From Puniceicoccales bacterium (lineage in GTDB: Bacteria > Verrucomicrobiota > Verrucomicrobiia > Opitutales > JAIRLM01): a stretch of DNA of 64,000 bases. A program made the translations under genes and the position numbers. The notes beneath the pieces are model-generated. The model saw nothing but the letters and a program-made list of their open reading frames with translations, ran no database searches and was not told where the DNA came from. The DNA is taken from NCBI GenBank assembly GCA_031290195.1, contig JAITOA010000044.1, forward strand, positions 256 to 64,255. Direction: 5' to 3'. Every line of letters begins with the position of its first letter. Within the stretch, counting starts at the first letter, position 1. Shown piece after piece: positions 4,031 through 53,895 of the stretch.

Positions 4031-5383
4031 TCAAGTCCCGGCCACCTTCGCCTTTAACCCATGCCAGCCACCGCAACCATTGGCAATCAGGACCAGTGCG
4101 CCGGACTCCCGGAGCACGGCCGCAAAAAATTCCTCCCACTCTTTCATTCGCGACCTCTCGCCGCCATCACCTTCAGTTTCAGGAGTAGGCACGCCCTTCA
4201 ATTTTCCTCCTTTGCGGAGCCGGTCGGTCCAGGCTCTAAGCCGGATTATATCCAGGTAAAAATTTTCTTCGCCGAGGCAAAATTTCACATGCTCCACTGG
4301 ACTTCCTTCTCCGCAGTGCCATAGTTCCCCATTTCCAGCTCCATCAAACACCAAACAGATAGGCTGCCCATGGCCACGGACGGCAATTTCGACGGAATCG
4401 CTTGCCCGAACCTGCTTCCCAATCGGAACGACGCCTTCGAGGTCGAAGTGTCTCTGTTTTATCAGTTGTCGAGTGAGAGGGTGAATGCCTCCGTCTTCCC
4501 GGGAAATTTCCTTGGTTGCGCAGCCATCTATGGCGTGGAGAAGGGTTTCCAACAGAAGGAAATATTCCCAGGTCTCCCCATCCAGAAGTGCGGCGCTAAA
4601 TCTATCGCGGGCAATTTTATAGGATTCCATCAGGGTAAAAAAATTTTCTTTTCTGGGGAAATTTTCGAAATGCTTCCTCTGACTCTCGTAAAAATTAATG
4701 AAAAAATCTATCCCTTCCCGGTTGGGAACTTGGAAAAATAGGTCCTTGAAATTTCCGTTTGGAAGAATTCCAACGTTACTGGGGATGGGGAAACCTCTTG
4801 GAATGGCCTGGATTGCGGCAAGGTCCGGCGTGACCCCCATTCCGCTTAAAAGGGGAACGAGCACGGAACAATGTCGGATTAGCGCACTGTAAATGTACAG
4901 CAGGTGCTGCAGGGCGTCGCCGTGCAGGAAACAGAACAGGGCAGCCCGATTGCTTTCAGGGGTCGAATGCAGTAAATTTTTATTTTCTTCGGCGGCAGCT
5001 CGCTGCACTTTCTTTTCCGGAGAAAGCAGGTTTTGCAAAATTTTTCCGGCATTCGGTGCTTTTTCCCCGTCCAGACCATTCAACATCGGTGCCAACGACG
5101 CCCGATATTCCGCCATCATTTTTGCATGGATGACGTCCCGAAATTTTTGCCAGCCGGCATCGGATTCCTCTTTGAAATGGGCGACACAGCGGTGGAAGTG
5201 ATCTGCAAAGCCTTTGGGGGTAAAACATTTCCAAGTACATCCGAGAAATTTTACCTCTCCCTCTGCTGCCCGGACGCAGACACTCGATGCACCTTCCACG
5301 CCATCCATTGGCTTCCAGTATTTCCCGTGACACCGGCATTGCAATGGAAAAAGCCGATGGGTCCGGCCCCACTTTTCGGCCAA
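4031..5383 (-). CDS. Hypothetical protein with a Cys/His-rich N-terminus
   Basis: 450 aa ORF, co-directional with hisS and ending 15 nt before it. The N-terminus reads CRCHGKYW...CTWKC...HFHRCVAHF, possibly metal-binding. I recognise no family. Confidence 0.55.
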   Translation of the reverse strand: MAEKWGRTHRLFPLQCRCHGKYWKPMDGVEGASSVCVRAAEGEVKFLGCTWKCFTPKGFADHFHRCVAHFKEESDAGWQKFRDVIHAKMMAEYRASLAPMLNGLDGEKAPNAGKILQNLLSPEKKVQRAAAEENKNLLHSTPESNRAALFCFLHGDALQHLLYIYSALIRHCSVLVPLLSGMGVTPDLAAIQAIPRGFPIPSNVGILPNGNFKDLFFQVPNREGIDFFINFYESQRKHFENFPRKENFFTLMESYKIARDRFSAALLDGETWEYFLLLETLLHAIDGCATKEISREDGGIHPLTRQLIKQRHFDLEGVVPIGKQVRASDSVEIAVRGHGQPICLVFDGAGNGELWHCGEGSPVEHVKFCLGEENFYLDIIRLRAWTDRLRKGGKLKGVPTPETEGDGGERSRMKEWEEFFAAVLRESGALVLIANGCGGWHGLKAKVAGT

Positions 5384-5465: not shown

Positions 5466-8372
5466 ATGCTGGGAATAGGAAACATTTGGCGACGGCTGGT
5501 AGGTCGTCATTACCGTAAATTTTTGCGGCGCTGTGATCCGCTGCTGCAGAAAATCAATGAATGGGACAGTGCTTTCCGTTCCCTCTCCGACGGAGAATTG
5601 GCGCAAAAAACAGAGGAATTTCGTCGTCGCCTGGGTGGGGGAGAAGTTCTGGACACGCTTCTACCGGAGGCCTTTGGCGTCATAAAAAATGCAGCCCGGA
5701 GACTCTGCGGAAAAAAATTGTCCGTTTGCGGGGAGGAGTTGGAGTGGCAAATGGTCCCCTACGATATGCAGCTCATCGGAGGCATTGCTTTGCATTCCAA
5801 TAAAATAGCGGAAATGGCAACGGGTGAAGGGAAGACCCTTGTAGCCACTCTTCCCCTCTACCTCAACGCACTGACGGGACGCAACTGCCAGCTGGTGACC
5901 GTCAATGACTACCTGGCCCGGCGGGACGCAGAGTGGATGGGTTATCTTTTTTCTTTCCTTGGAATTAGCGTCGGTTGCATTCAGAGCGTCATGGACCCGG
6001 AAGAACGGCGGCGGGCCTACGGCTGCGACGTCACCTACGGAACGGCGGCAGAGTTCGGCTTTGACTACCTGCGCGACAACGGTCTGGCCTATTCTCCGGA
6101 GGAGCAGGTGCAGAGGGATCACTACTTCTGCATCGTGGATGAAATTGACTCGGTTCTTGTGGATGAGGCCCGGACTCCGCTAGTTATTTCCGGCCCCATG
6201 GCAGAGGAACGAGTGGCCCCCTATGGAGAACTTTGCGGATCGGTGCAGCGGCTCGTACAATTGCAGACGCAAATTTGCAATCGTCTCATCGGAGAAGCAA
6301 AGGAACTGATGGATAGAAATCCATCCGATGAAACGGCATTTTCAAAATTGTACGCAGTGAGCATGGGCATGCCCAAGCATCGGCAGCTGTGCAAATTGCT
6401 GGAATTCGGCCCCATTGGAAAGCGACTGGAGCGACTGGGGGGAGAAATGGCCAGTGACCTTCGGAGGGACGAGCGCTTTGCACTGCGGGAAAGCCTCTAC
6501 TTCACCGTCGACGAGCGGCAAAACACGGCGGACCTGACGGAGCTGGGCCGCACGGCTCTCTATCCCGATGACCCGGACGCCTTTGTTCTCCCAGATCTCG
6601 CGGAAATTTTTTCCGAAATTGACCGGCGAAATGACCTCACCTTTCCGGAAAAACAGGAGCAAAAGCGGCGGCAGAGTGAACGAGCGGCGGCCATCGGAGA
6701 ACGCATTCACTGCATTGGCCAGCTGGTCCGCGCCCACATCCTCTTCGAAAAGGACCAGCACTACATTGTCCACGGCGGCCAGGTGCTCATCGTGGACCCC
6801 AACACCGGCCGCGCCATGCAAGGGCGCCGCTGGAGCGATGGACTCCACCAGGCCGTGGAGGCCAAGGAGAACCTTACAATCCAAAAGGAAAGTCGCACCT
6901 TCGCCACGATCACTGTTCAAAATTATTTTCGACTCTACGAGAAGTTGGCCGGAATGACGGGTACAGCGGAGACGGAGGCCCAGGAATTTCACGATATCTA
7001 CAGGCTCTCCGTAGTGGTGATCCCCACGCACCAACCCTGCATTCGCAGGGATGAAAACGACGTTATCTACAAAACTCGACGGGAGAAGTATGCGGCGGTG
7101 ATCGAAGACATTGGGGAGGCCCACGGCCGAGGGCAGCCGGTGCTGGTGGGAACAACGTCCGTAGAGGCATCGGAATTGCTGGGAAAAATGCTCCACATGA
7201 AAAAATTGCCCCACACCATCCTCAATGCAAAATTCCATGAAACGGAGGCAAAGATTATTGCAAGAGCGGGGGCCGTCGGAGCTATTACCCTCGCCACCAA
7301 CATGGCGGGCCGAGGAACGGACATCCGTCTTGCCGATGGTGTGTGTGCTCTCGGAGGACTGCGGGTCATTGGAACCGAACGCCATGAATCTCGCCGTATC
7401 GACCGACAGCTGCGGGGGCGCTGTGCTCGGCAGGGGGATCCGGGGGCGTCGAAATTTTACATTTCCCTGGAAGACGACCTCATGCGGCTTTTCGCTAGCC
7501 GTGGACCTATCGCTGCCATCCTCGACCGCACCTTTCGGGAAGGAGACGTACTGACACACCCCCTGCTAAATCGTTCCATCGGCAGTGCCCAGCGGAAGGT
7601 GGAGCAGCAAAACTATGCCATCCGCCGCCGGCTCCTCCAGTACGACGATGTGCTCAATGTACAGAGAGATGTGATCTATGCCATTCGCAATGGCGCGCTG
7701 CACAGTGAACGGCCAAAAGAGATTATTGAGGAATTACTTTCCGAGGAACTTGCCGTTCTGTGCTCCTTTGATGGCGAAAGTGAAATGGCCTCAGAGGAAG
7801 CGATGCAGCGGCTGCGCATGCTATTCCCCATCGTCGTTGAGCGGGAAAAGTTAGCTGGATTGAAGCCGGATGAAAGGGTGGAGCTGCTGATGGAACGGAT
7901 CCGGAAAGCCTATGCGGCCAAGGAGGAATTGGAGGATCCGGAGGTGCTGCGGCGGCTGGAACGCATTATCCTATTGAGAACCATCGACCACCACTGGCAG
8001 GTGCATCTGACGGAAATGGATGACCTGCGCCACGGCGTTGGCCTGCGAAGTTACGCTCAAAAGAATCCACTCTATGAATATAAAGCCGAAGCCTTCGATC
8101 GCTTTGAGCAGCTCATGGGGGCGGTACGGCGGGAGGTGGCATTTTCCCTGTTCCGTTCGGCCAGCAGCGCGGAAAAATTCCAGGAAATTCTGCAGAAGAT
8201 TCACCATTTTGGCGGCGGGGAATCCCTAAAAAATCCACCGCTGGAACCAGAAAAAAAGACGCACCAAATTTTGCGAAGCACGCTTTCTCGGGCGGTGATC
8301 GCCGACACCGGTCGCAATGAACTCTGCCCTTGCGGTAGCGGGAAAAAATATAAGAAATGTTGCGGAAGTTGA
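5466..8372 (+). CDS. secA: Preprotein translocase ATPase SecA
   Basis: DEAD-motor motifs are present (MATGEGKTLVATLP, DEIDSVLVDEARTPLVISG, TNMAGRGTDI), plus the C-terminal zinc motif CPCGSGKKYKKCCG. I prefer the start at MLGIGNIWRR (ATG 5466). The track TTG at 5412 coincides with a TTGACT -35-like box. Confidence 0.95.
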   Translation: MLGIGNIWRRLVGRHYRKFLRRCDPLLQKINEWDSAFRSLSDGELAQKTEEFRRRLGGGEVLDTLLPEAFGVIKNAARRLCGKKLSVCGEELEWQMVPYDMQLIGGIALHSNKIAEMATGEGKTLVATLPLYLNALTGRNCQLVTVNDYLARRDAEWMGYLFSFLGISVGCIQSVMDPEERRRAYGCDVTYGTAAEFGFDYLRDNGLAYSPEEQVQRDHYFCIVDEIDSVLVDEARTPLVISGPMAEERVAPYGELCGSVQRLVQLQTQICNRLIGEAKELMDRNPSDETAFSKLYAVSMGMPKHRQLCKLLEFGPIGKRLERLGGEMASDLRRDERFALRESLYFTVDERQNTADLTELGRTALYPDDPDAFVLPDLAEIFSEIDRRNDLTFPEKQEQKRRQSERAAAIGERIHCIGQLVRAHILFEKDQHYIVHGGQVLIVDPNTGRAMQGRRWSDGLHQAVEAKENLTIQKESRTFATITVQNYFRLYEKLAGMTGTAETEAQEFHDIYRLSVVVIPTHQPCIRRDENDVIYKTRREKYAAVIEDIGEAHGRGQPVLVGTTSVEASELLGKMLHMKKLPHTILNAKFHETEAKIIARAGAVGAITLATNMAGRGTDIRLADGVCALGGLRVIGTERHESRRIDRQLRGRCARQGDPGASKFYISLEDDLMRLFASRGPIAAILDRTFREGDVLTHPLLNRSIGSAQRKVEQQNYAIRRRLLQYDDVLNVQRDVIYAIRNGALHSERPKEIIEELLSEELAVLCSFDGESEMASEEAMQRLRMLFPIVVEREKLAGLKPDERVELLMERIRKAYAAKEELEDPEVLRRLERIILLRTIDHHWQVHLTEMDDLRHGVGLRSYAQKNPLYEYKAEAFDRFEQLMGAVRREVAFSLFRSASSAEKFQEILQKIHHFGGGESLKNPPLEPEKKTHQILRSTLSRAVIADTGRNELCPCGSGKKYKKCCGS

Positions 8373-44268: not shown

Positions 44269-44994
44269 GTGTGCAGTGTTCCACCAGTTCAACCCGTTTC
44301 CACAGGAGCTCCCAGTGTACCCGCTCCTGAAATTCCAAGAAGCGATAGTTCAGTGACAGGCACTCCATCCACCCCCAGCTCTGATGGTGCAGGAATTACC
44401 AATGAAGGTAAAAGTGCAAATGAAAATGGAGCAGTGGAAAAAGATAAAATTAAAGCCGCGCTAAAAGCTCTTGGCATGGAGCAATATGCCATTGACATCG
44501 TAATCGATGAATACATCGGGAAAAATGGAGATAAGGGATGCGCGTTTTTTTTAGGTGGAAATTTTTCCCTTATCTTACCGAGCACCGAAAATGCTGGGGA
44601 AAATTTTGAAAAAGTCGAAATAATTCGAATTCTCGCCAATGGCAAAGAGATACTTTTTGCCAAAAATGGGAGTTTCAATATTTGTGAAAGATATGGAAAG
44701 AAAAAAGCGTCGGCGGGCCATTCTCCGAGACTGACCATTCTGCATACGGACGGGAGCACGACCGAAAAAATCTATGCATCCTCGCTATGCAATTCGGTCA
44801 CTCCATGGAAATGTATCCTGGAATCCGTCCTTGACATCGGGAGCAAGGTCGTCATCGGCGTAGCCACGGCCGTTTTGGTGAAAATCGCTGTCCTATCTAT
44901 GGGATGGCTAATCTTCGCATTTCTTCTTCTTATCGCCGTCAGCGCCGGCGCCAAATTAATTAGTAAGTACTTTTTCGATGGGGCGCTGGCGTAG
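44269..44994 (+). CDS. Hypothetical protein: Pro/Ser-rich N-terminus and a C-terminal bilobed hydrophobic segment
   Basis: 241 aa. The C-terminus reads VVIGVATAVLVKIAVLSMGWLIFAFLLLIAVSAGAKLI. I recognise no family. The GTG start is uncertain. Confidence 0.55.
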   Translation: MCSVPPVQPVSTGAPSVPAPEIPRSDSSVTGTPSTPSSDGAGITNEGKSANENGAVEKDKIKAALKALGMEQYAIDIVIDEYIGKNGDKGCAFFLGGNFSLILPSTENAGENFEKVEIIRILANGKEILFAKNGSFNICERYGKKKASAGHSPRLTILHTDGSTTEKIYASSLCNSVTPWKCILESVLDIGSKVVIGVATAVLVKIAVLSMGWLIFAFLLLIAVSAGAKLISKYFFDGALA

Positions 44995-46690: not shown

Positions 46691-47488
46691 GTGAAAAATT
46701 ATCTGGCCGTGCTGGCCGATGTTTTGGAGCGCGGAGAACAATGCTGCGACCGCACGGGCGTTGGGACCCGTAATCTCTTCGGTGCTCAGCTACGCTTCGA
46801 TCTGACCGCCGGGTTTCCCCTTATGACGACGAAAAGGATCCACTGGAAATCGGTTGTCCATGAATTGCTTTGGTTTCTCCGTGGGTCCACCAATGTTCGC
46901 TATCTGCAGGAAAACGGCGTGCGCATCTGGAACGAGTGGGCCGACGAAAATGGCGAATTGGGTCCCGTCTACGGCAAGCAATGGAGGCGGTGGCAAACGG
47001 TCGACGGCCGGGAAGTGGACCAAATTGCCCAGCTAATTCAAAATTTAAAGGCAAATCCTTTTAGTCGTCGACACTTAATATCTGCTTGGAACGTGGGAGA
47101 AATTGGGCAAATGGCCCTGCCGCCTTGCCATTGTTTTTTCCAATTTCACGTCTCCTCCTCCGGGGATCTCCGCTGCCAACTCTATCAGCGTAGCGCCGAC
47201 ATGTTCCTCGGCGTACCTTTTAACGTCGCCAGCTACTCCCTCATCACCCATATGGTTGCCCATATCTGCGGATTGCGCGCCAAGGAATTCATCCACACGC
47301 TCGGAGACTACCACATCTACAATAGCCATTTGGAACAGGTCCGAGAGCAGCTGGACAGGGAGCCGCGGAACCTTCCAAGTTTGAAAATTGTCCAAAACCG
47401 CCAAGACATCGATGACTTTTGCTTCGATGACTTTGAACTTTCCGGCTACAATCCCCACGGCGCCATTGCTGCTAGGGTCGCCGTGTAA
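46691..47488 (+). CDS. thyA: Thymidylate synthase (ThyA type)
   Basis: [19 protein letters not shown] (catalytic Cys present), [14 protein letters not shown] and [12 protein letters not shown] start. No folA adjacent. Confidence 0.92.
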
Positions 47489-47496
47489 TTTTTTTC

Positions 47497-49281
47497 CTAC
47501 GAATTTTTCCGCAGGGAAATGGCAAGTTCCTTCAGCTGCTGCTCCGTTGCCGACGATGGAGACTGTACCATCAGGTCCATGCCTTTCTGAGTTTTCGGAA
47601 ATGCAATGACATCACGGATGGAGGTGGTTCCACAGAGCATGGCCACGAGTCGGTCGAGGCCGAGGGCGATGCCGCCGTGGGGTGGTGCTCCATAGCGAAA
47701 GGCCCGTAGCATGTATCCGAAGCGGCTCTCAGTAATTTCCGGTGAAATTTTAAGCAAATTTTCAAAAATTTTCCGCTGTAGTTCCGGAGAATGGATCCGA
47801 ATGCTGCCGCCGCCCAATTCCACGCCGTTCATGACGATATCGTAGTGCTGCCCGCGGACGGCCATCGGATCTTTTTCTAGGAGAGGGATGTCTCCGGGAA
47901 TGGGGGCCGTGAACGGGTGATGGGTTGCCACGTGTCGACCTTGCTCTTCGTCGTAGGTCAGCAGAGGAAAATCAACGACCCAAAGCAGATTGAACTGATC
48001 CCATGGAAGTTGCAAAGTTCCCCGTGACCGGAGAAGTTCGAGGCAGTCCAGGCGGACCCTTCCCAAAATTTTACAGGATTTTTCCCAGGGTCCGGCTGAA
48101 AAAAACAGAATATCGCCTTCTTTGGGGGAAATGTTTCGATCTAACTCTTGCCGCTCTTCCTCGGAAAAAAATTTTAAAATGGGAGATTTCCACTGGCCAT
48201 TCTCCACCTTCAAATAGGCAAGACCCTTTGCTCCGACGGAACGAGCTCCTTCCTCTAGACCGCGTAGCTCACCCTGGGTAATATTTGCCAAACCCCTTCC
48301 GTTAAAAATTTTAACAACCCCACCTCCGGCTACAGCAGCGGCGAAAACTCCAAAGGTGGAATTTCTAAAAATTTCCGAAACGTCCGCCAATTCCATGGTG
48401 GAGCGGGTATCTGGCTTGTCGGAGCCGTAGCGGTTCATGGCTTCCCGGAAGGACATACGGGGGAACGGTGTGGCTAATTTTTTCCCCAGTACATCATTCC
48501 ATACCCGCGCCAGCAATCCCTCGATGAGTTCGTAGATATCTTCCCGCTCGATGAAAGACATCTCCAAATCAACCTGGGTGAATTCCGGCTGCCGGTCCGC
48601 CCGAAGGTCCTCGTCGCGGAAGCAGCGGGCTAGCGAATAGTAGCGTTCTATTCCGGCGACCATTAGCATTTGCTTGTACTGCTGGGGTGATTGAGCCAGC
48701 GCATAAAATTGTCCTGGATTGATGCGGCAGGGCACGAGGAACTCCCGGGCACCCTCGGGGGTTGTTTTAAAAAGGGTCGGCAGCTCGATCTCTAAAAAAT
48801 CCTTTTGATTGAGGTAATCGCGGATCGTCGCCGCTACCCGATGACGGCGCAGTAGCCGTCGGTAGCAGTTCTCCCGTCGAAGATCCAGATAGCGATAGGT
48901 TAGTTTTATCTCCTCGTTTACCCTTTTCGCCTGCTCATCTTCCAGGGAAAAAGGCAGTGCATCGGCAACGTTGTGAACGATGGCTTCCTCTACGGCAACC
49001 TCTACTTCCCCCGTTTCTAATTTTTCGTTGTTGGTTTGTTCCGGCCGTAGTCGCACCTTCCCGGAAATTTCAAGGACGGACTCGCAGTGTAGGGCCGACA
49101 GGTGAACCAGTTCCGGATGTTCCTGGCCGTCCACCACCAGTTGCACGAGGCCGGAGCGGTCTCGGAGATCCAAAAAAAACAGCCCACCGTGGTCCCTCCT
49201 GGCGTGGACCCAGCCAACCAGCCGAACCTGTCCACCAACGTGCAAGGACCGTAACTCACCGCAGCGGTGTGTGCGTACCAT
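47497..49281 (-). CDS. aspS: Aspartyl-tRNA synthetase
   Basis: QSPQQYKQMLMVAG, FRDEDLRADRQPEFTQVD, GGGSIRIH and PPHGGIALGLDRLV. I prefer the start at MVRTHRCGEL (ATG 49281). Confidence 0.92.
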   Translation of the reverse strand: MVRTHRCGELRSLHVGGQVRLVGWVHARRDHGGLFFLDLRDRSGLVQLVVDGQEHPELVHLSALHCESVLEISGKVRLRPEQTNNEKLETGEVEVAVEEAIVHNVADALPFSLEDEQAKRVNEEIKLTYRYLDLRRENCYRRLLRRHRVAATIRDYLNQKDFLEIELPTLFKTTPEGAREFLVPCRINPGQFYALAQSPQQYKQMLMVAGIERYYSLARCFRDEDLRADRQPEFTQVDLEMSFIEREDIYELIEGLLARVWNDVLGKKLATPFPRMSFREAMNRYGSDKPDTRSTMELADVSEIFRNSTFGVFAAAVAGGGVVKIFNGRGLANITQGELRGLEEGARSVGAKGLAYLKVENGQWKSPILKFFSEEERQELDRNISPKEGDILFFSAGPWEKSCKILGRVRLDCLELLRSRGTLQLPWDQFNLLWVVDFPLLTYDEEQGRHVATHHPFTAPIPGDIPLLEKDPMAVRGQHYDIVMNGVELGGGSIRIHSPELQRKIFENLLKISPEITESRFGYMLRAFRYGAPPHGGIALGLDRLVAMLCGTTSIRDVIAFPKTQKGMDLMVQSPSSATEQQLKELAISLRKNS

Positions 49282-49440
49282 AACTTTCCGACTCCTAGGA
49301 GGAGACCTCGCGGAAGACAATGCAAAATTACTCCCGGGAACCTTTCTTCGGGACTAACTCCCGAAAGCAGGGACCGGCTGCGGCGAAAAATTAGAAATTT
49401 CCGTTGCATTTCCCGCGGCGGCACCAATCGTTAGGTTCCT

Positions 49441-50838
49441 TTGATGAGTCCGTGCTTGTCCGCACTGGAAAGTCCAGCCCTCCGCCGCAGTCCCGTCTTT
49501 GAGGTTTGCAGACAAATTAACGGCGTCGGGGGCCACTCTTTTTTGGTGGGCGGCTGTGTGCGCGACCTATTGCTGGGCTGTTTTCCCGACGAGTGGGACC
49601 TGGAAGTTTTTAACTGCACCGAGGAAGTCTTGGAAACACTTTTCCGCGACCAGTTGAGTTTCGTCGGTAAGGACTATGGAATTTACAGGTTCCGCCGCTG
49701 GTCCATCGACGTTGGACTACCCCGCCGGGAAAGGCCTCACGGTCCTTCCCATGGGGATTTTTCCGTCGCAACGGATCCGGGTATGAATCTGGTTGAAGCC
49801 GCTCGCCGTCGTGATTTTACCATCAATGCCATTTACTTTGATCCCATCGGGAAGTTTCTGGAAGATCCGTTTGGCGGCCAAGAGGATCTGCTGCGTCGCC
49901 GCCTTCGCCATGTCTCGGAACGCTTCGGAGAAGATCCCCTGCGGGTGCTCCGTGGTATGCAATTTCTCGCCCGTTTCCAGCTGAAAGCTGACCCCCAAAC
50001 GATCCAACTCTGCCGTACTTTGAGTCCACAATTTCTTCCGCCGGAACGTGTTTTCGGTGAATTTTCCAAACTTCTCCTCCGCGGCCTGGCCATCGGTGAT
50101 GGACTGGAATTTTTAAATCGCTGTGGCTGGCTTGCCTTTTTCCCGGAACTTGATTCCCTGAGAAGCTGTCTTCAAAATCCGCAATTTCATCCAGAAGGCA
50201 CTGTATGGGAGCATATTAAGCATGCAATGAATGCCTTTGCGTCCCTGCGGCCTGAAAATGACGAAGATGCCCTTGCCGTCGGCTTTGCGGTTCTCTGCCA
50301 TGACCTTGGAAAGCCTGCCTGCACACACATTGGGCCCGATGGCCGACTCCGCACCGGCGGGCACGATTGGGCGGGCATTGTTCCGGCGCGGCGATTTTTG
50401 GAGCGCATTCGGGCGCCGAAGAGGCTCGTCGAAGGCGTCCTTTCCCTCGTTGAAAACCACATGGTTCCCCATACCCTCTCCGACTCCTCCCCGGAAACCT
50501 TGGGCGTCCTGCGACGACTGGCCCGGAGAATGGGACGCATCGACCGATTGCTCGCTGTGGTTCGCTGCGACAACAGGGGCCGACCTCCGTGCAAACCGAA
50601 TCTGGAGGAGGAAGACCTCCTGGAGCGGCTTGCCCGCAGCGATGGAATTTTTGACAAACCTCCGGAACCCATCATCCGCGGTCGAGATCTCCTGGAACAT
50701 TTTCCATCATTCCCTCAAAAACAAATGGGAAATTTCTTGGGTTATTTATTTGAAGCCCAAATGGACGGGAAATTTTCTTCGCTGGAAGATGGTCTTCTGC
50801 TAGCCAGGGAGGTTGCCGGTGCGTTTTCTCCTCGTTGA
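49441..50838 (+). CDS. cca: tRNA nucleotidyltransferase (CCA-adding) / poly(A) polymerase family with an HD domain
   Basis: Head domain LVGGCVRDLLLG...DWDLEV and HD motif FAVLCHDLGKP. 465 aa. Confidence 0.8.
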   Translation: MMSPCLSALESPALRRSPVFEVCRQINGVGGHSFLVGGCVRDLLLGCFPDEWDLEVFNCTEEVLETLFRDQLSFVGKDYGIYRFRRWSIDVGLPRRERPHGPSHGDFSVATDPGMNLVEAARRRDFTINAIYFDPIGKFLEDPFGGQEDLLRRRLRHVSERFGEDPLRVLRGMQFLARFQLKADPQTIQLCRTLSPQFLPPERVFGEFSKLLLRGLAIGDGLEFLNRCGWLAFFPELDSLRSCLQNPQFHPEGTVWEHIKHAMNAFASLRPENDEDALAVGFAVLCHDLGKPACTHIGPDGRLRTGGHDWAGIVPARRFLERIRAPKRLVEGVLSLVENHMVPHTLSDSSPETLGVLRRLARRMGRIDRLLAVVRCDNRGRPPCKPNLEEEDLLERLARSDGIFDKPPEPIIRGRDLLEHFPSFPQKQMGNFLGYLFEAQMDGKFSSLEDGLLLAREVAGAFSPR

Positions 50839-51310
50839 CGGACTAAACGTTCTCCACGGAAGCGCACAATTTTCCGAATATCTACCTCATAACCTTTTCG
50901 GAGCCATGGAAAAATTGCTCCACCTTCTCTTTTCATTGCTTAGTTCCCCGGATCTGCAGGTGGTCATCGTCTACGACGGAGGAGCCAGGGGGCAATTTCC
51001 CGAGGCGGAAACGCTACACCACCGGCTCTCCATCATCCGCACTGGGGCTGGCAAATCGGCCGATGAAACTATCCTAAAAATTTTAAGCCGCATCAAAAAT
51101 TTACGAAAAGATGCTCGCATCTTCCTGGCAAGTAACGACGGAGGGCTGCGGACCGCAGCGGCGGCCCTTGGAGGAGAATTGCTTACCGTGGAGGAGCTGC
51201 TGGAACGGGTTCGCCTGCACTCCGCAGGAATGGAGGAGCGTCTTCGCCGATCGGAGCAGCAATGGACCAACCGCCTCGGCAATCATCCGGGGTTGAATTT
51301 GGATAAATGA
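50813..51310 (+). CDS. NYN/PIN-like domain protein (YacP-like predicted RNase)
   Basis: FLLVDGLNVLHGS, VVIVYDGG and LASNDGGL. Its 5' end overlaps cca by about 20-26 nt, and its stop overlaps the next ATG (ATGA). Confidence 0.65.
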   Translation: MPVRFLLVDGLNVLHGSAQFSEYLPHNLFGAMEKLLHLLFSLLSSPDLQVVIVYDGGARGQFPEAETLHHRLSIIRTGAGKSADETILKILSRIKNLRKDARIFLASNDGGLRTAAAALGGELLTVEELLERVRLHSAGMEERLRRSEQQWTNRLGNHPGLNLDK

Positions 51311-53895
51311 TCGAAAAATATCCCATTGCCAGCCGGCAGCGGTGTGACTACCCAAAGTTCATGGAAAGGGAAATATGGGTGCGGAGGCGTAACCGGCAGG
51401 TGGTGCCCTGGCAGCGAGGAAAAATCGAAATTGCCATCCGAAAGGCGCTTCTGGCGGAAAAAGGCTCCGAAGATGGGGCGGCTGCCGTTGCGGACGCGGT
51501 GGAGCGGGAAATTTTTTCCCGCGGCATTTCCCCCGTTGACATCGAAACCATCCAGGATGCCGTGCAGGATGCGTTGCTGGCCTCCGGAGAAGAAAACATA
51601 GCCCTCTCCTATGCGACCTACCGACGCCGACGCCGGGAAGGAAGGGAGGATAGTGAGTCCAAAACTTCCCAGCAGACGCTAACCTTTGTTCACCATCCGG
51701 ACGGCACGGTGCGCTGCTGGACCGATGAACTGTGGTTGGAGCGGATCGGAGTCGCCGCCCGGGGGCTCAATCTTCCCGAAAAATCCGAGGAACTCATTGC
51801 GGTTCTGCGGCGGGGCGTAGGTGACGGTCCTACGGCAGAGGAACTGCGAAAAATGGTCCTCTCCAACGCCCTCCGCAGAGCAAAAACTGATCCCTCCTAT
51901 GGCCGTTTCGCGGCTGGTCTTGGACTGCAATTTTCCTACGAGGAAGTGCTGGGCTATGATGTCCAGGTCACTAATTCCAACGCCGTGGCAATGGAGCAAA
52001 AAAGCTATTTTCTCCGCTACATAAAAGACGCTACGGCAAATGCACTCTTGGACCACCGCCTGGAAAATTTCAACGTGGGAGTCCTCGCCAACGCTCTGGA
52101 CATCAGCCGTGACACCCTTCTTGACTGGTCCGCCTTCGACTTGCTTTCCGAAGAATTTCTCCTCCGTAGCCATGGTCATCCCATGGAAACGCCCCAAATA
52201 TTTTGGATGCGGGTTGCCATGGGAATTTTCATCGGTGACGCCGGTCGCGGAGAAAACCATGTCCTGGAACTCTACGATGCCCTCAGCCGTCTGGAATTTT
52301 GCCCCGCTTCCACCACTCTCCTCTACGCCGGAACTCCAAACCAACAGCTTCTCCCGAGTTACGTTTATGTGCTGCGGGATACGATGGAGGACATCATGGT
52401 CCGCGGCATCGCGGAAAATGCCTTTGCATCCCGGTGGGGTGCGGGGCTTTGCGGTTCTTGGTCCCACATTCGCGGAAAAGATTCCGAAATTGGCGGCTCC
52501 AGGGGCGTATCCGAGGGCATAGAACCCTTTTTGCAACTTCATCGGCACCAGCTGGCAATCGCTAACCAGGGATCTCACCGGCGGCGGGGAGCCGGCTGTG
52601 CTACCCTGGACCTTTGGCACTGGGATTTAGAAACATTCATCGAGCTGCGTCGAAAAATGGTAAAATTCTGCCATGGCTCCTGTGAACCGGAACTGCGAAC
52701 CTGCCTGTGGGTCCCTGATCTTTTCATGGAGAGGCTCGAGGAAAAGGACGGCTACTGGACTCTTTTCCAGCCAATGGACGTACCGGGCCTTGCAGGACTC
52801 TGGGGGGTAGCCTTTGAGGAAAATTACTTGGCCGCAGAGGCCCTTGCCGTCCGAGGAAAAATTTGTTCCCGCCAATTTCCCATCCAGGAACTTTGGAAGA
52901 AGATTCTCGCCCTTGCCTTTGAAACGGGTTTTCCGACACTGGCTTTCAAGGATACGTTTAATCGTAGCCACTACCTCGCCCTTAAAAAATACATCCCCGC
53001 ATCCAGCCTTTTCGGAGAGATGGCCATGGCGGCGAATTTTTCGGAAACGGCCGCCGGAGCATTCGGAACCATTTCCCTGCTGGCTCACTCCTCCCCAACG
53101 GGGACCGTGGACCGGGAAAAATTTCGCGGCACCATTCGCCTGGCCATGGAGGCCCTGGACAGCATTCTTTCGGTGAGCACATTTCCGTCGGAGTCCATCG
53201 CACGTCACTGCGACTACTATCGGGGACTTTGTCTCGGCCTGGCCGGACTGCACGATGTTCTGCGCCGACGGGGACTTCCCTTCGATTCCCCGGAGGCGGA
53301 ACGGGAAGCAGAGACCATCTTCGGTGAACTTTCCGATGAAACAAAAAAGGTATCGGAGAGTCTGGCTAGGCAGCTGGGTCCCTGCGGTGCGGACCCCATC
53401 CTCCGCAATGCCTACCGCACCGTCGGCACGGCCAATACGCGAACCGCCAAGCTTCTCGGCGTTTTTCCAGGAGCCTGTCCGGCCGTCCGCAACGGTCACT
53501 CCGTTTCTATGCCGGATGGGAACAGGGTGTGGATCCTGGACGCATTCCTCGCGGATACCCTAAAAGCTAGAAATCTATGGCGGGACGACCTCGGCGAACG
53601 GCTGAATCACATGGAAGGTGACGTTGCGGCATTTCCCGAATTGCCGGAGGACCTGCGAGCTATCTTTGCGACGGCCTTTGACTGCAATCCGGAGCGGCTA
53701 CTCGCCATTGCCGCCGGCATTCAAAGGCAAATTGACCAGTCCCAGGCCCTTCCCCTCCGACTCCGCATGCCCACCCTCTCCCAACTCTCTTCGCTCATGG
53801 TCCTTGCCTGGAAATTGGGCATCAAGTCCATTGGTCCCACGCTGACCGCCCAGTCCCTTGCCAGCGAACGGGCACGGGAAAAATTTAGCCCCTAG
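51307..53895 (+). CDS. Ribonucleotide reductase large-subunit homologue with an N-terminal ATP-cone; catalytic Cys/Asn/Tyr residues all substituted (predicted pseudoenzyme)
   Basis: Collinear with RNR alpha throughout: ATP-cone VRRRNRQVVPWQRGKIEIAIRKAL; ...QGSHRRRGAGCATLDLWHWDLETFIELRR; TLFQPMDVPGL; YRGLCLGLAGLHDVL; QIDQSQ. However, the finger-loop SNLCLEI/SNPCGE position reads SSLFGEM (Phe569, 53011-53013), the SSC position reads PSY (Tyr352, 52360-52362), the ALCTLS position reads AFGTIS, and the C-terminal YY position reads GP. Confidence 0.75.
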   Translation: MIEKYPIASRQRCDYPKFMEREIWVRRRNRQVVPWQRGKIEIAIRKALLAEKGSEDGAAAVADAVEREIFSRGISPVDIETIQDAVQDALLASGEENIALSYATYRRRRREGREDSESKTSQQTLTFVHHPDGTVRCWTDELWLERIGVAARGLNLPEKSEELIAVLRRGVGDGPTAEELRKMVLSNALRRAKTDPSYGRFAAGLGLQFSYEEVLGYDVQVTNSNAVAMEQKSYFLRYIKDATANALLDHRLENFNVGVLANALDISRDTLLDWSAFDLLSEEFLLRSHGHPMETPQIFWMRVAMGIFIGDAGRGENHVLELYDALSRLEFCPASTTLLYAGTPNQQLLPSYVYVLRDTMEDIMVRGIAENAFASRWGAGLCGSWSHIRGKDSEIGGSRGVSEGIEPFLQLHRHQLAIANQGSHRRRGAGCATLDLWHWDLETFIELRRKMVKFCHGSCEPELRTCLWVPDLFMERLEEKDGYWTLFQPMDVPGLAGLWGVAFEENYLAAEALAVRGKICSRQFPIQELWKKILALAFETGFPTLAFKDTFNRSHYLALKKYIPASSLFGEMAMAANFSETAAGAFGTISLLAHSSPTGTVDREKFRGTIRLAMEALDSILSVSTFPSESIARHCDYYRGLCLGLAGLHDVLRRRGLPFDSPEAEREAETIFGELSDETKKVSESLARQLGPCGADPILRNAYRTVGTANTRTAKLLGVFPGACPAVRNGHSVSMPDGNRVWILDAFLADTLKARNLWRDDLGERLNHMEGDVAAFPELPEDLRAIFATAFDCNPERLLAIAAGIQRQIDQSQALPLRLRMPTLSQLSSLMVLAWKLGIKSIGPTLTAQSLASERAREKFSP

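Follow-up and report, generated by a model that had tools for sequence, protein, structure and literature searches.

A predicted catalytically dead homologue of the class I ribonucleotide reductase large subunit, apparently kept by selection in Puniceicoccales bacteria

Ribonucleotide reductases (RNRs) are normally present and extremely conserved; from a few parasites and endosymbionts, they have been lost altogether by gene deletion (PMC10121223, PMC2795772). In the large RNR phylogeny papers, in the RNRdb paper and in the paper on life without ribonucleotide reduction, the loss of reduction is described by gene deletion only. Here, we describe an intact gene for a homologue of the class I RNR large (alpha) subunit, NrdA, from which the catalytic residues are missing. 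It lies in a stretch of 64,000 nucleotides (the window) of contig JAITOA010000044.1, part of a metagenome-assembled genome (MAG) of a Puniceicoccales bacterium (GCA_031290195.1), and its product, called dead NrdA in the following, is identical to the NCBI entry MDR3317082.1, named “hypothetical protein LBS68_03395” and also assigned to a Puniceicoccales MAG. A published bacterial dead alpha subunit was not found in the open-access papers searched, the phylogeny, RNRdb and life-without-reduction papers included; these full-text searches agree with the first-pass annotation of the window, a reading of the sequence by a model, which knew of no bacterial case.

Among the described systems, the R1 homologues of beta-herpesviruses, M45 of murine cytomegalovirus and UL45 of human cytomegalovirus, are alike in being full-length homologues that have lost the catalytic residues and are retained for non-catalytic reasons (PMC5469499). 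They differ from dead NrdA in being viral and in acting on host cell-death and NF-kB signalling via added N-terminal RHIM motifs, whereas dead NrdA, which is likened to them by description only, is encoded on a bacterial chromosome, carries no extra domain and has an ATP-cone and a specificity site that look intact. Yeast Rnr4 is another inert RNR paralogue that is kept for a structural or regulatory role, but it is a small-subunit homologue and the obligate partner of an active subunit, while dead NrdA is a large subunit, for which no active partner came to light in the loci examined. For a presumed cone-based sensor, the closest functional analogy is NrdR, a small protein that represses the transcription of nrd genes, binds DNA by a zinc ribbon and uses its ATP-cone to read the ATP/dATP ratio without catalysis; dead NrdA, in contrast, lacks any DNA-binding domain and includes a complete dead barrel. 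It belongs to none of these three families. The curated name of the NCBIfam family NF005401 (PRK06948), “ribonucleotide reductase-like protein”, indicates that RNR-like bacterial proteins of uncertain activity have been recognised before. Dead NrdA is no member of that family, its match being weak by score (67.9 bits against a cut-off of 906).

The closest relatives of dead NrdA are the class I alpha subunits of the NrdAz type. Pfam detects an ATP-cone at residues 25-110 (E 3e-18, 66.5 bits against a cut-off of 25.8), Ribonuc_red_lgN at residues 276-346 (E 5e-16) and Ribonuc_red_lgC (E 9e-82, 276 bits against 625 in working relatives), and the best solved relative by sequence, the class I NrdA of P. 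aeruginosa (5im3, E 2e-98), is collinear with it over residues 21-842. Judged by these matches, the 862-residue protein is of NrdAz-type architecture, with an ATP-cone, an all-alpha domain and a barrel, in line with the first-pass annotation, which had read here an uninterrupted open reading frame (ORF) of 862 codons running from the cone to the barrel. Compared with NrdAz proteins such as 5im3, C. trachomatis NrdA, P0016 and P0030, the domain order and the fold are the same at 34-36% identity over the full length, and so are the ATP-cone, the degenerate inner cone and the specificity-site residues of helix A, loop 1 and helix B; in a neighbour-joining tree, the clade to which dead NrdA belongs branches beside the verrucomicrobial canonical group. 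Unlike these proteins, it is without the radical and redox residues, the cysteine tail and an adjacent nrdB, is missing the canonical N-terminal extension of ~150 residues found in Opitutales, and evolves several-fold faster. It also stays under every equivalog cut-off of NCBIfam (at best 443.5 against 965 bits for NF005544) and under that of TIGR02506 (298.6 against 341.05), with the remaining models far under theirs. By its sequence, then, dead NrdA descends from the NrdAz class I alpha family and falls outside it by every catalytic criterion of membership.

An AlphaFold2 model built from an alignment of 47 sequences reached a mean pLDDT (predicted local distance difference test) of 83.6 and a pTM (predicted template modelling score) of 0.81, with the lowest confidence at the extreme N-terminus, in the linkers and in the surroundings of the former active site. 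Searched with Foldseek against the PDB, the model retrieved class I alpha chains only, led by 5im3 at E 5e-57. The target-normalised template modelling (TM) scores of the top matches were 0.77-0.88, those of human and yeast R1 0.80-0.88 and that of human R1 0.87. The superposition on class I alpha structures, which the first-pass annotation had proposed, was thus obtained, and the modelled fold is that of a reductase large subunit, in which the all-alpha domain precedes the ten-stranded alpha/beta barrel with its finger loop.

Residue equivalences were taken from a MAFFT alignment of E. coli NrdA (from NC_000913.3), dead NrdA and 46 relatives, and the HMMER alignment to 5im3 gives a matching register with high posterior probabilities. 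Thiyl-radical C439 of E. coli corresponds to Phe569, encoded by an unambiguous TTC codon, and N437 to Ser567; E441 alone is retained in this motif, as Glu571. In place of the redox cysteines C225 and C462, dead NrdA has Ser351 and Gly584, and in place of the radical-transfer tyrosines Y730/Y731 it has Gly843/Pro844. The C-terminal cysteine pair (C754/C759 of E. coli) is absent because the protein stops early, finishing in ...EKFSP 18 residues past Gly843-Pro844; canonical relatives terminate in C-E-x-C-Q. An N-x-C-x-E motif was sought across the whole protein and none was found. These losses had been announced by the first-pass annotation, and its claims held for the S567-L-F569-G-E571 stretch (seen by both MAFFT and HMMER), for the two tyrosines, for the CxxxxC tail and for the lack of an N-x-C-x-E motif elsewhere. 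Its register was one off at C225, which it had equated with Tyr352, a residue that matches a Tyr of the working relatives (SSCYLY against LPSYVY); at C462 it was right about the loss and wrong about the Gly that it chose, the equivalent being Gly584 in ETAAGAFGT. These two corrections leave the conclusion of catalytic loss unchanged, and the loss of ribonucleotide reduction by dead NrdA is as secure as sequence can make it.

That the protein could still be a working reductase, with a relocated or unconventional radical site, is barely conceivable. In its favour, dead NrdA retains the fold as a whole, a Glu equivalent to Glu441 and the effector sites, but every characterised reductase of classes I-III uses a finger-loop cysteine (PMC10121223, PMC9531940). 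None is present here, and an N-x-C-x-E motif elsewhere, the radical-transfer tyrosines, the reducing cysteines and a nearby beta subunit are likewise missing.

The replacements are not peculiar to one genome. Dead NrdA makes a tight group with 13 further proteins, 44-62% identical to it and mostly of ~860-880 residues, after which identity falls to ~35% for canonical Opitutales NrdA of ~1085 residues. The 14 clade proteins are 39-69% identical pairwise and come from at least nine genomes, each with an intact ORF; in a scan of one genome per GTDB species, the clade was present in eight species-level MAGs, all titled “Puniceicoccales bacterium”. All 14 share LPSYVY, SSLFGE (SSLHGD or ASLFGD in a few), Gly-Pro for Tyr-Tyr and the absence of a Cys tail, which answers the question, raised by the first-pass annotation, of whether the substitutions are conserved in relatives. 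The canonical counterparts retain SSCYLY, SNLCTE, CNLG, TTYYLR and CExCQ. Within the clade, the thiyl-radical position is occupied by Phe (13 of 14) or His (one), the Glu441 equivalent by Glu (11) or Asp (three), and the dyad position by Gly in all 13 members that cover it. The position of Ser351 is variable (S/N/G/D), as is that of Gly584 (S/G/C/R/A), and such free variation at both redox-cysteine positions is as expected of an abandoned site.

For the closest pair with DNA, P0004 and P0007 (69% identical), the Nei-Gojobori method yields a ratio of nonsynonymous to synonymous substitution rates (dN/dS) of 0.21 and YN00 one of 0.13, values that are rough because dS, at least 1 in this pair, is saturated; all pairs beyond it are synonymously saturated, and YN00 was usable for this one only. 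Within the clade, 75 columns are invariant, and a neutral sequence of 880 codons would be expected to have gained dozens of stop codons at such a dS. Between the window genome and the MAG JAISOW, dead NrdA is 51% identical and three amino-acid ABC transporter proteins are 50-61% identical, so the divergence matches that of other proteins of the same two genomes and dead NrdA changes at the pace of an ordinary protein under constraint. Among the 120 closest listed matches to canonical NrdA, which include several Opitutales and Puniceicoccales genera, identity does not fall below 69%; dead NrdA has therefore been released from the canonical level of conservation.

The ORF might have survived by chance, in a pseudogene under decay or as a product of faulty assembly or sequencing, which would be in keeping with the missing catalytic residues, with a barrel score in Pfam about half that of working relatives and with an evolution far faster than that of canonical NrdA. 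Both are very improbable, as intact ORFs of ~860-880 codons persist in 14 independent assemblies at this dS, with the dN/dS and the invariant columns given above, and as the replacements recur across many assemblies and hence are not read errors. The maintenance of dead NrdA by selection is well supported by these comparisons. The first-pass annotation had proposed a maintained dead fold and a loss specific to this gene rather than general decay, and had named orthologue frameshifts or neutral evolution as what would speak against it; the 14 ORFs are intact, the dN/dS of the closest pair is far from neutral, and the confident model and the intact neighbouring genes fit its proposal as well.

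Selection has not preserved all parts of the protein to the same extent. Best preserved are the ATP-cone at the N-terminus, where working enzymes bind ATP/dATP, the specificity site formed by helix A together with loop 1 and helix B, and the dimer interface. Of 455 canonical-invariant columns, those with a conservation of 97% or more across 106 canonical relatives, the dead clade keeps 74% of the ones in the ATP-cone, 59% of those in the helix A - loop 1 - helix B segment, with the specificity site and the dimer interface, and 50% of those in loop 2. Retention then drops to 22% in the C462 strand, 18% in the Tyr-Tyr strand, 13% in the phosphate-binding helix and 12% in the finger loop. At the start of the phosphate helix, canonical APTATISNI is replaced by GTANTRTAKL in dead NrdA, with APTsRTA as the clade consensus.

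The retained cone corresponds to the one cone that Pfam detects in working NrdA of Opitutales (residues 157-241 of P0016) and, in the alignment to P. aeruginosa NrdA, to the first cone, which binds dATP; the motifs of the retained cone are conserved in the dead clade and common to the working relatives. The inner, degenerate region is aligned with the one ATP-cone that E. coli NrdA has, but is without the nucleotide-binding Lys/Arg, also in working relatives. At the specificity site, the equivalents of D232, S249, R262, I268 and F281 are invariant or nearly so, and those of Q294 and R298 in loop 2 are kept in the window protein and in 11-12 of the 14 clade members.

Because this pattern spares the allosteric modules and the dimer interface, we favour the reading that dead NrdA, as a class I alpha subunit of the NrdAz type maintained by selection, is a pseudoenzyme that binds nucleotides without catalysis, a reading to which we give a probability of roughly 55%. 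The preferential retention of the ATP-cone and the specificity site also fits the suggestion of nucleotide sensing made by the first-pass annotation. A protein of this kind would still dimerise and would still bind ATP/dATP at the cone and (deoxy)nucleoside triphosphates at the specificity site. Effector binding would then alter its conformation or oligomeric state, and by this change it might report or buffer the nucleotide pool for some partner.

Several points weigh against the nucleotide-binding reading. Loop 2 is deleted in P0009 and P0012 and is degenerate in most of the wider dead lineages described below, so a link between the effector site and the active site is not required throughout. 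In the finger loop, the clade now has a new, nearly invariant sequence, SSLFGExAMA, and the loop might have acquired an activity instead of just losing one. The substitution rates are the rough ones given above, nucleotide binding and oligomerisation are predictions from residue conservation, the partner and the output of the supposed sensor are hypothetical, and the endosymbiont lifestyle of the source MAG, to which we return below, is a supposition as well.

The new finger-loop sequence is also the starting point of the main rival, a neofunctionalised enzyme in which the barrel would have been rebuilt for a non-radical reaction on a nucleotide or a related substrate, under the control of the ATP-cone. 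Its new active site might comprise Ser567, Phe569, Gly570, Glu571, Tyr352, Tyr354, Arg712 and the new Cys466 and Cys635. Altogether, 59 canonical-invariant positions hold a different, clade-conserved residue, the finger loop, Arg712 of the phosphate-binding helix, Cys466 and Cys635 among them, and the Glu441 equivalent remains Glu or Asp. However, both redox-cysteine positions vary freely, the wider dead lineages have no finger-loop replacement in common, the bulky Phe at the tip of the loop could just fill the pocket, and the confidence of the model is lowest around the former active site. We consider such an enzyme unlikely.

The conservation of the specificity-site helices and the dimer interface, the best-conserved segment, can be read in yet another way, in which the dead alpha subunit heterodimerises with an active alpha subunit, or binds a beta subunit, and so tunes or inhibits reduction as a regulatory or decoy partner. 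Yeast Rnr2/Rnr4 offers a precedent for an inactive RNR subunit that acts as a partner. Against it, the Tyr-Tyr strand and the C-terminus, which lie near the contact between alpha and beta subunits, are poorly conserved, and no nrd gene neighbours dead nrdA in any locus examined. When canonical and E. coli NrdA and NrdB were searched with tblastn against the window and the related loci, ~280 kb in all, only the dead genes were found and no nrdB-like sequence was detected, which extends the observation of the first-pass annotation that no nrdB is adjacent; in a canonical Puniceicoccaceae genome (L016), nrdB lies directly upstream of nrdA. The termite-MAG label is also absent from the 120 listed matches to canonical Puniceicoccaceae NrdA and NrdB in a collection of 5.8 billion proteins, but this says nothing either way, since the canonical queries are so conserved (NrdA at least 69%, NrdB ~80%, across orders and phyla) that marine and freshwater relatives filled the 120 listed matches. 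The missing canonical nrdA and nrdB are thus weak evidence, and, taking all points together, we regard a regulatory or decoy partner as rather improbable.

Dead NrdA is not the only NrdAz-like protein in this state. A profile of the clade was searched against 1.84 billion representatives of 50%-identity clusters and ranked the clade first, followed by proteins of 812-1046 residues that are also without the catalytic set, which make up at least 12 further dead or half-dead NrdAz-like lineages. P0354, P0355, P0356, P0357, P0358, P0361, P0372, P0374, P0375, P0380 and P0397 are fully dead, and P0351 is half dead, keeping N-x-C-x-E and the second Cys while C225, one Tyr and the tail are gone. The Tyr-Tyr dyad and the Cys tail are missing in all 12 lineages, and recognisable ATP-cone motifs (VxRRNG..VPW..KIE; IQDxVQ; YxxYR) are present in all except P0380. 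At the position of the finger-loop cysteine, the dead ones carry F, H, G, W, L, A, N, E or R. P0354 and P0356 come from the termite series of Puniceicoccales MAGs, and P0357 from the “Verrucomicrobia bacterium” MAG GCA_003489865.1.

Neighbour-joining recovers the termite clade in each of 100 bootstraps and places it, together with seven other dead lineages, beside the verrucomicrobial canonical group; four others and P0375 are placed elsewhere in NrdAz, so that the further lineages fall into at least two groups. A single clade of all dead sequences is recovered in only 3% of the replicates, which points to more than one origin of dead NrdAz, a reading for which the long branches call for caution. 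Tentatively, and well short of even odds, this might be generalised to eukaryote-associated bacteria that repeatedly turn a class I alpha subunit into an ATP-cone pseudoenzyme once reduction has been abandoned, a sensor of dATP/ATP and deoxynucleoside triphosphates that would couple imported or salvaged deoxynucleotides to replication or transport. If this is true, the termite clade and the 12 or more further lineages would exemplify the repeated conversion.

On the termite-gut Puniceicoccales contig of P0354 (L017), a TLC-type (PF03219) nucleotide transporter is encoded at 6582-8105, 2 kb upstream of P0354; transporters of this type are a hallmark of intracellular bacteria and a marker of nucleotide parasitism inside cells, and the window and the remaining loci examined showed none. 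A gene beside P0354 with a Pfam match to dCMP_cyt_deam_1 was considered as a link to deoxynucleotide salvage and dropped, as it has the HAE...PCxMC signature of TadA-like tRNA deaminases. Among the dead proteins whose entries at NCBI and JGI were compared, P0004, P0007, P0354, P0356 and P0357 included, several bear the name “ribonucleoside-diphosphate reductase subunit alpha” and others “hypothetical protein”; the enzyme name on dead NrdA proteins is probably a misannotation.

According to a paper on the same series of MAGs, the codes Nm470, Gsp477 and Roe453 stand for Neotermes meruensis, Glyptotermes and Roisinitermes ebogoensis, all of them lower termites (PMC11707648). The Nucleococcus “termite cluster” of Verrucomicrobia consists of intranuclear or cytoplasmic symbionts of gut flagellates, with genomes of ~1 Mb (PMC8204192). 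The host bacteria are probably protist-associated termite-gut Verrucomicrobia. For the source MAG, we infer an endosymbiont-like lifestyle because the origin of the MAGs from lower termites, an ankyrin-repeat protein (a faint Pfam match near one relative), the TLC transporter, the patatin and autotransporter genes and the low-GC (guanine-cytosine) orphan clusters fit it. The change in NrdA would have arisen in a Puniceicoccales lineage of the anoxic guts of lower termites, probably associated with gut flagellates. There, an O2-dependent class I reductase would be of little use, and deoxynucleotides might come from another reductase or from the host.

Patatin-like and autotransporter proteins are common among host-interacting bacteria. 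The window encodes a patatin-like phospholipase of 667 residues, by a weak Pfam match (9099-11102, plus strand), and a protein with an autotransporter beta-domain (30500-31654, minus strand). Three tandem paralogous ORFs of ~350 residues (20173-23676, plus strand) are 27-29% identical and belong to no Pfam family; this stretch has 42-44% GC against ~54% for the contig, one of the ORFs has a faint sub-threshold HECT match (E 0.005), and the three may be lineage-specific effector-like genes. Further long ORFs without a match to Pfam, to PADLOC or to paralogues within the window lie at 33300-35770 (plus), 56279-58195 (minus), 58348-59130 (plus), 44269-44994 (plus) and 4031-5383 (minus), some of them in stretches of lower GC (45-49%). 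An ORF of 783 residues (15562-17913, minus strand) appears to be a MurC-MurB fusion, with a very divergent MurC-like N-terminal half (Mur ligase, E 4e-4 to 6e-3) and a clear MurB C-terminal half. The gene at 28086-28940 (plus strand) encodes MreC, conserved at 56% identity in L007, and the overlapping ORF of 246 residues on the minus strand is unsupported.

Three genes on the same strand overlap at their ends, in the order CCA-adding family gene, NYN gene and dead nrdA, and are probably on one transcript (Table 1). Translation may begin at Met19 instead of the first ATG: most homologues start 2-6 residues ahead of the VxRRN motif, the first 18 codons of the ORF are unmatched in most of them, and residues 1-20 are disordered in the model, with a pLDDT below 50. 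As a counterpoint, the NYN gene upstream overlaps the first ATG by ATGA at 51307, which would fit translational coupling. Housekeeping genes surround dead nrdA, among them aspS, thyA, lpxD, gpsA, an epimerase gene, lptF/G, sucCD, aminoacyl-tRNA synthetase genes and mur genes. ThyA (46691-47488) is intact and keeps the catalytic motif ALPPCH, as the first-pass annotation had claimed for this and other neighbouring enzymes; for the others, the domains are confirmed at the Pfam level only. PADLOC gave no defence-model match for dead NrdA or four neighbouring ORFs, and Rfam and tRNA scans of the window returned nothing. Gene order around dead nrdA is not conserved among the relatives. Dead nrdA genes have aspS in their vicinity in the window and in L019, and dnaG-rpoD in L019 and L021, loci of more distant dead relatives from very divergent genomes. 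This partial synteny suggests vertical descent and hints at one ancestral locus for the group beside verrucomicrobial canonical NrdA.

Table 1. Positions of dead nrdA, of its domains and replaced residues, and of neighbouring features, in window coordinates unless another locus is named.
Feature	Position	Strand	Remark
Complete ORF of the dead NrdA homologue	51307..53895	+	862 aa
Internal ATG, Met19	51361..51363	+	Candidate true start
ATP-cone, aa 25-110	51379..51636	+	Pfam, alignment to 5im3
Inner degenerate cone-like region, aa 126-215	51682..51951	+	Alignment to E. coli NrdA cone
Ribonuc_red_lgN all-alpha domain, aa 276-346	52132..52344	+	Pfam
Ser351 codon AGT, in place of redox Cys225	52357..52359	+	Alignment
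Helix A - loop 1 - helix B, aa 358-419, specificity (effector) site and dimer interface	52378..52563	+	Alignment
Loop 2, aa 420-429, NQGSHRRRGA	52564..52593	+	Alignment
Finger loop, aa 563-576, IPASSLFGEMAMAA	52993..53034	+	Ser567, Phe569 and Glu571 inside
Phe569 codon TTC	53011-53013	+	In place of thiyl-radical C439
Gly584 codon, in place of redox Cys462	53056..53058	+	Alignment
Start of substrate-phosphate-binding helix, aa 706-716	53422..53454	+	Alignment
Gly843-Pro844, in place of radical-transfer dyad Tyr730-Tyr731	53833..53838	+	Alignment
CCA-adding/poly(A) polymerase family gene	49441-50838	+	Pfam
YacP-like NYN gene, overlapping the dead nrdA start by ATGA	50813-51310	+	Pfam
Weak terminator-like hairpin, 70 nt past the stop codon	53964..53978	+	Consensus match only
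Loose-synteny segments of dead nrdA with aspS and dnaG-rpoD	window 47497-49320; L019 13196-14653, 17164-20730; L021 6964-10527		

A large subunit that has been kept for long without its chemistry points to a second, non-catalytic job for the RNR fold, and dead NrdA represents a natural experiment in which the allosteric machinery is separated from catalysis. If the wider dead lineages are confirmed, they would amount to an unrecognised family of bacterial pseudoenzymes. In addition, because several of these proteins carry enzyme names in the databases, metabolic reconstructions of these termite-gut symbionts would wrongly credit them with their own deoxynucleotide synthesis.

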